A stretch of 64,000 nucleotides of DNA from Eledone cirrhosa (taxonomy: Eukaryota), in contig OZ024748.1 in the NCBI GenBank assembly GCA_964016885.1, forward strand, positions 12,834,001-12,898,000. The letters run 5' to 3'. Below the pieces are notes generated by a model. The model did not search any database. It saw only the letters and a list, made by a program, of their open reading frames with translations, and was not told where the DNA came from. Of this stretch, positions 4,747 through 5,130 are shown piece by piece; position 1 is the first letter of the stretch, and each line of letters starts with the position of its first letter. Position numbers and translations under genes: made by a program.

Positions 4747-5130
4747 TTATACAGGACTAGAACTGTTTCATTCTTTAGAAATCATCGGGAATCTGGGTAT
4801 CAAAAAATAAATATGGTATTTATAGGTCTCTTCAGGTGGTAGTAGAGGGTAGGGAATGGGATGGGTAGAGGTCATTGGTTGATAGGAAAGGGAATTCACT
4901 AAAAGCTAATTCTTTAAAGCTATAATTTATATTTAGAGTAACAAAGGCAGAAAGAATTCTATAAACAAGTTCAGAATGGGGTGCCACTCCTTATTTTTAA
5001 GTATCACTTGTGATACCCAGATTCCTGATGATTTCTAAAGAATGAAACAGTCCTAGTCCTGTAGAATCTCATCTATATTAAAACTGTTATACTCTGCTAT
5101 GTATTGAGTACCTTACTTACCCGGAATAAC

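Follow-up and report, generated by a model that had tools for sequence, protein, structure and literature searches.

Penelope-like retrotransposons (PLEs) with hammerhead sequences form a described class. The Hydra clade is set apart, according to PMC8557442, by DKT in place of DKG, RWK, a CxCX5C linker, CxxC and CxH in the endonuclease, and (TA)n targets; the same source calls the role of PLE hammerheads unclear. In the metazoan min-HHRs of PMC4209133, the consensus combines the G10.1-C11.1 pair with a bulge that follows A9 and a long helix II, while helix III is minimal or absent. For the Poseidon element PAc of Anolis, PMC11167929 reports that two internal RT starts define the tail and that uncut RNA is the main substrate; there the ribozyme needs the protein, and cutting was dispensable for insertion in vitro. 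The non-LTR retrozymes (bioRxiv 10.64898/2026.07.22.740005) are built of non-coding tandem repeats. To this class, the sequence analysed here, H1, adds one very abundant family. We consider it highly probable that H1 is a type I hammerhead sequence in the pseudo-LTR (pLTR) of a young, high-copy Hydra-clade PLE, with a predicted cut after GUA, and that the copies in the window (the whole stretch of 64,000 nucleotides that was analysed) are short head-to-head (TA)n insertions, likely inactive.

The window is microsatellite-rich and animal-type. Its first H1 motif, of subfamily A, lies on the plus strand at 5019..5069 and comprises stem I (5019-5024/5064-5069), the core (5025-5031), stem II (5033-5035/5040-5042) between U10.1 (5032) and U11.1 (5043), and stem III (5047-5050/5059-5062) around loop 3 (5051-5058), numbered by the general hammerhead convention. 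The core is intact, all 13 of its pairs are present, and the predicted cut falls after A5063. The second motif, of subfamily B, occupies 62552..62602 on the plus strand, opens at the putative transcription start, and has its predicted cut after A62596; a private A>T change at 62575 breaks one of its stem II pairs. The preliminary description had correctly placed both motifs and both predicted scissile bonds, although it extended the second motif to 62551-62603 and gave it a 7-bp stem I (GAGCTTC/GAAGCTC). That stem has 6 bp. Pair 7 is paired in one of the 109 copies with an intact 5' side, and G62551 stems from the inversion junction, where it complements C3 of the inverted copy. The cores read CTGATGA (5019) and CTGAAGA (62552), U occupies 10.1 and 11.1 in both copies, and loop 3 also differs, with TCCTAGTC at 5019 and TACTAGTC at 62552.

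Measured against the hammerhead core as defined in PMC3088659, H1 has C3 U4 G5 A6 N7 G8 A9, G12 A13 A14, the A15.1-U16.1 pair and H17, with three helices round the core and helix I open. It has U-U instead of the usual, though not obligatory, G10.1-C11.1 pair. On this basis, H1 is predicted from its sequence to self-cut RNA 3' of GUA. Rfam scans around both motifs matched no hammerhead family, and neither did the whole-window scan among the best 150 of its 310 matches; H1 thus lies outside the Rfam hammerhead models, and the matches obtained were miRNA families only, driven by microsatellites and hairpins. Four well-paired type III motifs from other contigs (L087-L198) likewise escaped Rfam, so the models do not cover the H1 variant. 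A PDB sequence search returned nothing relevant.

Each window locus also holds a second, inverted copy, with minus-strand cores at 4788 and 62551. Locus 1 begins after a (TA)n target microsatellite (4696..4742), which resumes from 5133; (TA)n flanks locus 2 on both sides. The inverted arm of locus 1 (4743..5009, minus strand) is a tail-less pLTR fragment, 95.9% identical to L218, that ends in (TA)n. It carries a TATAAATA box of the pLTR with putative promoter function (4817..4824, minus strand), a CCAAT box (4874-4878, minus strand) and a mutated hammerhead in which U4 has become C and the first stem I pair is broken. The forward arm (5008..5131, plus strand) is a 5'-truncated pLTR fragment of hammerhead and tail, 95-97% identical to family A loci; its tail has a 21-nt deletion, and (TA)n follows. 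At locus 2, the forward arm (62552..62688, plus strand) keeps the full tail up to (TA)n and is 96-98% identical to family B loci, and the tail-less inverted arm (62496..62551, minus strand, containing G62551) begins exactly at C3. Both loci are truncated head-to-head insertions in (TA)n. Both forward arms lack the TATA box, and the window yielded no PLE ORF. Forcing the hammerhead in context costs about 68 and 72 kcal/mol relative to the arm-to-arm hairpin, and folding models predict that each window hammerhead is sequestered by its own antisense arm.

In the source genome (3.0 Gb), the exact core pattern matched 28,333 times, against 0 matches for the reversed-pattern control. One looser core pattern gave 40,423 matches (control 104), a count that takes in a second family, and another gave 44,108 (control 27). 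Following the hammerhead copies upstream led to an ORF, and 12 loci were chosen for a 758-codon open frame from the 150 ORF matches listed. These frames, on average 1.3% apart, belong to subfamily A and thus to the 5019 copy; the 62552 copy is of subfamily B. In all 12 loci, a hammerhead lies on the 5' side, close to the frame. It is part of a repeated copy of the element's 3' end; this repeat measures from 12 nt to at least 900 nt and includes the TATA box in 11 of the 12. A second hammerhead follows 4.7-6.3 kb downstream in 11 of the 12 full-length loci. The 3' UTR between the frame and this 3' hammerhead contains kilobases of (TA)/(TG) repeats (2-3 kb of microsatellite in L035 and L264), so the element spreads its own target sequence.

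The 758-codon protein contains RWR, DKT, YRDD, a CxCx5C linker, a GIY-YIG-like motif, CxxC and CxH. By motifs, the single ORF with RT and, C-terminally, a GIY-YIG is that of an endonuclease-positive PLE. The partial tandem forming pLTRs with a hammerhead in each (5' in 12/12 and 3' in 11/12 loci) and the 5' inverted copy, with the tail confined to one of the two arms (36 of 38 inverted pairs), are also those of a PLE. Within the PLEs, DKT, the CxCX5C linker, the endonuclease CxxC and CxH, and insertion of H1 copies into (TA)n agree with the Hydra clade, with RWR in family A a conservative change from RWK. We therefore assign the element to the Hydra clade by its motifs and (TA)n targeting. The Neptune clade was ruled out, as the CX2-5CxxC linker finger that it requires is missing from 3/3 ORFs. 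The protein has 556 homologues at about 40% identity. Against our reading, Pfam GIY-YIG matches stayed below the cut-off (E 0.005-0.09), and the Pfam search of the ORF protein matched no RT family.

Subfamily B has ORF pieces 57-77% identical to A in five of eight inverted-pair loci; of the remaining three, one has a more distant element, one has A copies and one is without an ORF. At one locus, L031, the subfamily B end is joined to a different ORF, related to that of an 832-codon family. This locus, probably a chimera, speaks against our reading; it also hints at pLTR swapping or nesting. Subfamily B was considered as the end of the 832-codon family and rejected, since that family carries another hammerhead. 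The 832-codon family is of Hydra type and has many intact frames (L067, L213-L232); its hammerhead has C at position 4, a mismatch at the stem II base and a palindromic stem III. A second abundant family (L039-L049) has U-U, a 2-bp stem II, a 5-bp stem I and a palindromic AAUU loop 3, and likewise occurs as inverted pairs in (TA)n.

The literature search found no paper on this H1 family; Repbase, Dfam and closed-access work could still describe it. Small PLE hammerhead variants that cleave as dimers were reportedly described by Lunse et al., who may already cover the H1 architecture. A search of the PMC8557442 supplement did not find GAATGAAACAG.

The preliminary description had taken stem I of the two window copies as covarying, in the pattern expected from selection on RNA structure. 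The copies differ by one pair, pair 4, which is A-U at 5019 and C-G at 62552. The collected loci yielded 168 distinct copies, 109 of which keep their 5' side intact. In these 109, pair 4 is occupied by C-G in 53, by A-U in 46 and by other combinations in 10, and pair 6 by A-U in 98, G-C in nine and G-U in two; both pairs covary. In a tree of 92 of the 109 copies, computed with the stem I columns left out, copies with A-U at pair 4 fall into one clade, which means a single event, though branch support is weak; those with G-C at pair 6 lie apart, at up to four tips. The change on both strands therefore stands, but it concerns one pair and one inherited event, and the 5019 and 62552 copies belong to two sister transposon subfamilies, not to independently selected loci.

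A larger alignment, proposed at the outset as a check for covariation, gave a divided answer. Among 56 different 51-mers (excluding one outlier whose 5' strand is shifted), 94.6% of 728 cells pair, compared with 29-47% when the strands are slid. Their covariation score exceeded 500 of 500 shuffles, a margin that related sequences can reach without structure; however, only two pairs show a double change, which is no excess over shuffles (454/500 as high). Stems II and III showed no double-sided change among these 51-mers, so that such changes are confined to helix I.

Among seven subfamily majority sequences, 0 of 26 positions in the core, stem II and stem III vary, compared with 14 of 19 in the flank, loop 2 and position 7, and all five stem I changes preserve pairing; this comparison is partly biased, as many copies were retrieved with core patterns. 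The variation reported earlier at core position 7 (T or A in the two copies) and in loop 2 was borne out. Since loop 2 varies at all four positions, a fixed tertiary contact between stems I and II is argued against. When contigs were aligned to a full element, a less biased comparison than core-based retrieval, differences present in at least 10% were confined, within the 51 nt, to loop 2 and to one base of pair 4, the 3' one. Selection on RNA structure thus finds support in the family, through pairs 4 and 6 and the unchanged core and stems, but not in the comparison of the two window copies. Selection on the hammerhead fold in source elements is modestly supported; it would act on these elements and not on the scattered copies.

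The insertion footprints locate the RT starts relative to the scissile bond. The (TA)n begins at most 35 nt past this bond in 80 of the 168 copies (mode 21) and 75-105 nt past it in 58 (mode 89); 28 copies have no (TA)n within 110 nt, two fall between the classes, and in 0/168 copies does (TA)n start at the cut site. These tail classes match the two RT starts and the uncut template reported for the Anolis element in PMC11167929.

Palindromes mark the other end. Pairs of back-to-back cores no more than 30 nt apart, with their centre at the stem I base, were found 5,742 times (all subfamilies), compared with 38 centred in the next 30 nt upstream and 91 round the cut site, both counted for family A only; the family A share is about two-fifths, by eye, of 50 stem I-base palindromes listed. 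The palindromes stop 30-34 nt after the TATAAATA TATA box, with CACCC and CCAAT boxes upstream, and among the 50 junctions listed none has an arm that reaches 8 nt upstream of the core (by eye). CCAAT, CACCC and TATA are promoter boxes. The TATA box precedes the core 7,050 times (control 235), a count that includes an unrelated family. Because the palindromes stop at the stem I base at this distance from the TATA box, we infer from the sequence that transcription starts at the first bases of stem I. The palindromes would then likely mark the transcription start, which implies uncut RNA as the insertion template. At the cut site, an arm ends at or beside the scissile bond in about 13 of 50 near-cut palindromes listed (by eye), nine of which share a 3-nt microhomology. 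Microhomology drives other junction classes too, so these ends may, but need not, reflect cutting in vivo. A literature search on the Penelope pLTR promoter, TATA and transcription start found nothing; a TATA box with an Inr in a rotifer pLTR is already in print, and D. virilis Penelope is described with a TATA-less internal promoter.

The main rival to the start-site reading explains the stem I-base junctions by a structural RT stop, or by self-priming with antisense RNA or DNA as template, in place of an RNA 5' end. PMC3846280 explains head-to-head palindromes by antisense-RNA self-priming, and microhomology occurs at many junctions. The stop at a set distance from a conserved TATA box with a CCAAT box upstream, and the absence of upstream arms among the junctions listed, make this explanation improbable in our judgement.

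With transcription starting at stem I, the insertions could be explained as follows. The CCAAT/CACCC/TATA promoter in the pLTR would start RNA at the first base of stem I, and the element's RT would use (TA)n to prime at two sites located about 21 and about 89 nt downstream of the scissile bond, from which it would copy back through the uncut ribozyme. Two cDNAs running off the RNA 5' end could then be joined head to head, giving palindromes of the type at 62496-62688. Full-length copies keep the promoter and therefore call for a longer template, which a circle or a tandem precursor could supply, or else for a template jump.

The fold itself appears weak. The monomer hammerhead is not the minimum-energy structure (probability 5e-4 to 3e-2), folding z-scores of the motif are not significant, and the RNAalifold consensus pairs UUUC with the core GAAA instead of forming the hammerhead; all three weigh against our reading. 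Self-pairing of the stem III segment yields -11 to -15 kcal/mol, versus -1.4 for the hairpin, mostly from the stem. The self-complementarity of loop 3 is no better than chance, with 10-21% of permutations as stable. This result does not support loop 3 as a selected palindrome and leaves the dimer step weak. We lean slightly towards a partial activity: only some transcripts would be cut by the weak monomer fold, with assistance from the element's protein or from two quasi-palindromic stem III segments that pair with each other, and unit-length RNA would thereby be trimmed from read-through transcripts.

A more tentative proposal, which we regard as possible though rather doubtful, is a cap-proximal switch: transcription would start from the ribozyme's first base, and cutting would sort transcripts into a cut pool and an uncut insertion template. 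If so, a capped leader of 45 nt would be lost on cutting, as would both RT starts at the 3' copy. A misfold of UUUC with GAAA, enabled by the U-U, together with the long loop 3 would keep the ribozyme inactive, pending the binding of the element's protein or of a second copy. The mini-palindromes would then amount to a fossil map on which the start site and the uncut state are preserved.

Partial cutting has to be weighed against the model of PMC4209133, in which efficient cutting at both ends yields a unit RNA that is ligated into a circle and templates cDNA of more than unit length. A circle is one of the templates that would account for the 5' repeat of the 3' end in 12/12 full-length copies, and it would allow RT to start 3' of the cut. 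However, the 5,742 palindromes end at the stem I base, an end that no circle has, the monomer fold is weak, and cutting was dispensable for insertion in vitro (PMC11167929). We judge the circle unlikely, about on a par with the structural RT stop.

Less likely again, and doubtful to our minds, is conservation of the sequence for protein binding, promoter function or RT positioning, with cutting no longer needed. Loop 3 is indeed nearly as conserved as the core, with one of eight positions varying among subfamilies, the motif overlaps the putative start, and the insertion templates appear uncut. Yet the core is preserved at every position, whereas variation occurs at position 7 and in loop 2, and in a close relative (RT 91-95% identical to L031) the sequence is another one but once more a hammerhead, an indication that selection acts on the ribozyme fold. 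It is very improbable that local selection maintains the two window copies as working ribozymes: the 5019 copy has its intact core and all 13 pairs, but the cost of the hammerhead in context, the damage at 62575 and at U4 of the 4788 arm, the missing TATA boxes and the lack of a PLE ORF in the window all stand against it.

Other repeats were observed in the window. Palindromic insertions at 8638-8784 and 24335-24457 carry a hammerhead-like core with A at position 4 and U flanking stem II on both sides; no clear stem I or III was found in them. A palindromic repeat family (23039-23200, 41800-42020, 43782-43971, 48868-49070 and 63056-63331) shows GAAAC, a GC-rich stem III round a GAGCTC palindrome, and GUC, and no CUGANGA was found in the copies examined. 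Three of its copies share with H1 the tail motif GTATTGAGTAC (window 5101 and 62637), which resembles the 3' end of a published coral consensus printed just before Hydra-1_Obim and is possibly a clade-wide protein-binding or RT-start signal. Further palindromic insertions adjoin (TA)n at 1310-1389, 1589-1719, 4603-4695, 9791-9878, 14561-14634, 32864-33022, 43088-43531 and 63430-63675; these eight are probably truncated ends of other PLE families. A dispersed SINE-like repeat of about 190 bp, 85-93% identical, occurs at 11908-12093, 12484-12657, 13230-13419, 32565-32725, 44243-44435 and 59047-59243, and tandem arrays lie at 15687-16448 (units of about 99/56 bp), 27533-28115 (about 105 bp) and 52557-53059 (roughly 100 bp or less).

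With near-identical intact ORFs and a 51-nt motif, the family offers a test bed for cutting versus insertion, and its genome-wide footprints show where RT starts and stops relative to the scissile bond.

Compared with known systems, H1 is closest to the Hydra-clade hammerheads of PMC8557442, which are likewise of type I, lie in the pLTR and target (TA)n. The U-U at the stem II base, first described as unusual, proved ordinary: by our count of File S2 of that paper, U stands on both sides of the stem II base (…gat/stem/tgaa) in 14 of 25 Hydra-clade families. A natural U10.1-U11.1 is reported in PMC3088659, where U-U is the best-tolerated mismatch, and these two sources rule out U-U as a novelty. 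Stem III as acag/ctgt with A17 recurs in Hydra-1_aMil, Penelope-1_NV and Penelope-1_SK, and the 3-bp stem II in Penelope-9_HM (PMC8557442). The element is longer (4.7-6.3 kb, versus generally <3 kb for Hydra-clade PLEs in PMC8557442) because of its microsatellite-rich 3' UTR.

The min-HHRs of PMC4209133 resemble H1 in having a hammerhead in both pLTRs, many solitary and opposite-strand copies, and many subfamilies with compensatory changes. H1 departs from their consensus with its U-U, 3-bp helix II and 4-bp helix III, and it shows neither G10.1-C11.1 nor the bulge after A9 nor a minimal helix III. Poseidon PAc (PMC11167929) shares with H1 a hammerhead upstream of two tail-defining RT starts and uncut RNA as template; the clades differ, the tail is about 68 nt in the H1 element versus 30-40 in PAc, and the first ATG lies about 136 nt past the cut in family A, whereas the PAc ORF begins within the ribozyme. 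The non-LTR retrozymes (bioRxiv 10.64898/2026.07.22.740005) also have a type I hammerhead in a PLE-related repeat, one in each non-coding tandem unit, whereas H1 copies stand on both sides of a coding ORF, and the short ones form inverted pairs.

Outside the PLEs, type III motifs from viral and metagenome contigs share the U-U, 3-bp stem II and tetraloop of H1 (26 of the 126 pattern matches listed). Unlike H1, they have type III topology, loop 2 is always NAAA, and no transposon link was seen. In this set (L087-L198, 22 references), which has a UGUG-like loop 1 and strong covariation, 22 distinct fixed-length sequences pair in 308/308 cells, with double changes in nine of 14 pairs and four stem III pairs fixed by the search pattern. 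By analogy, these motifs may lend outside support to a small stem II with U-U. Neither the 8-nt loop 3 nor the 5,742 stem I-base palindromes were seen in the literature examined. In the motif, the 8-nt loop 3 alone stands out, compared with 1-3 nt in all 25 families of PMC8557442.
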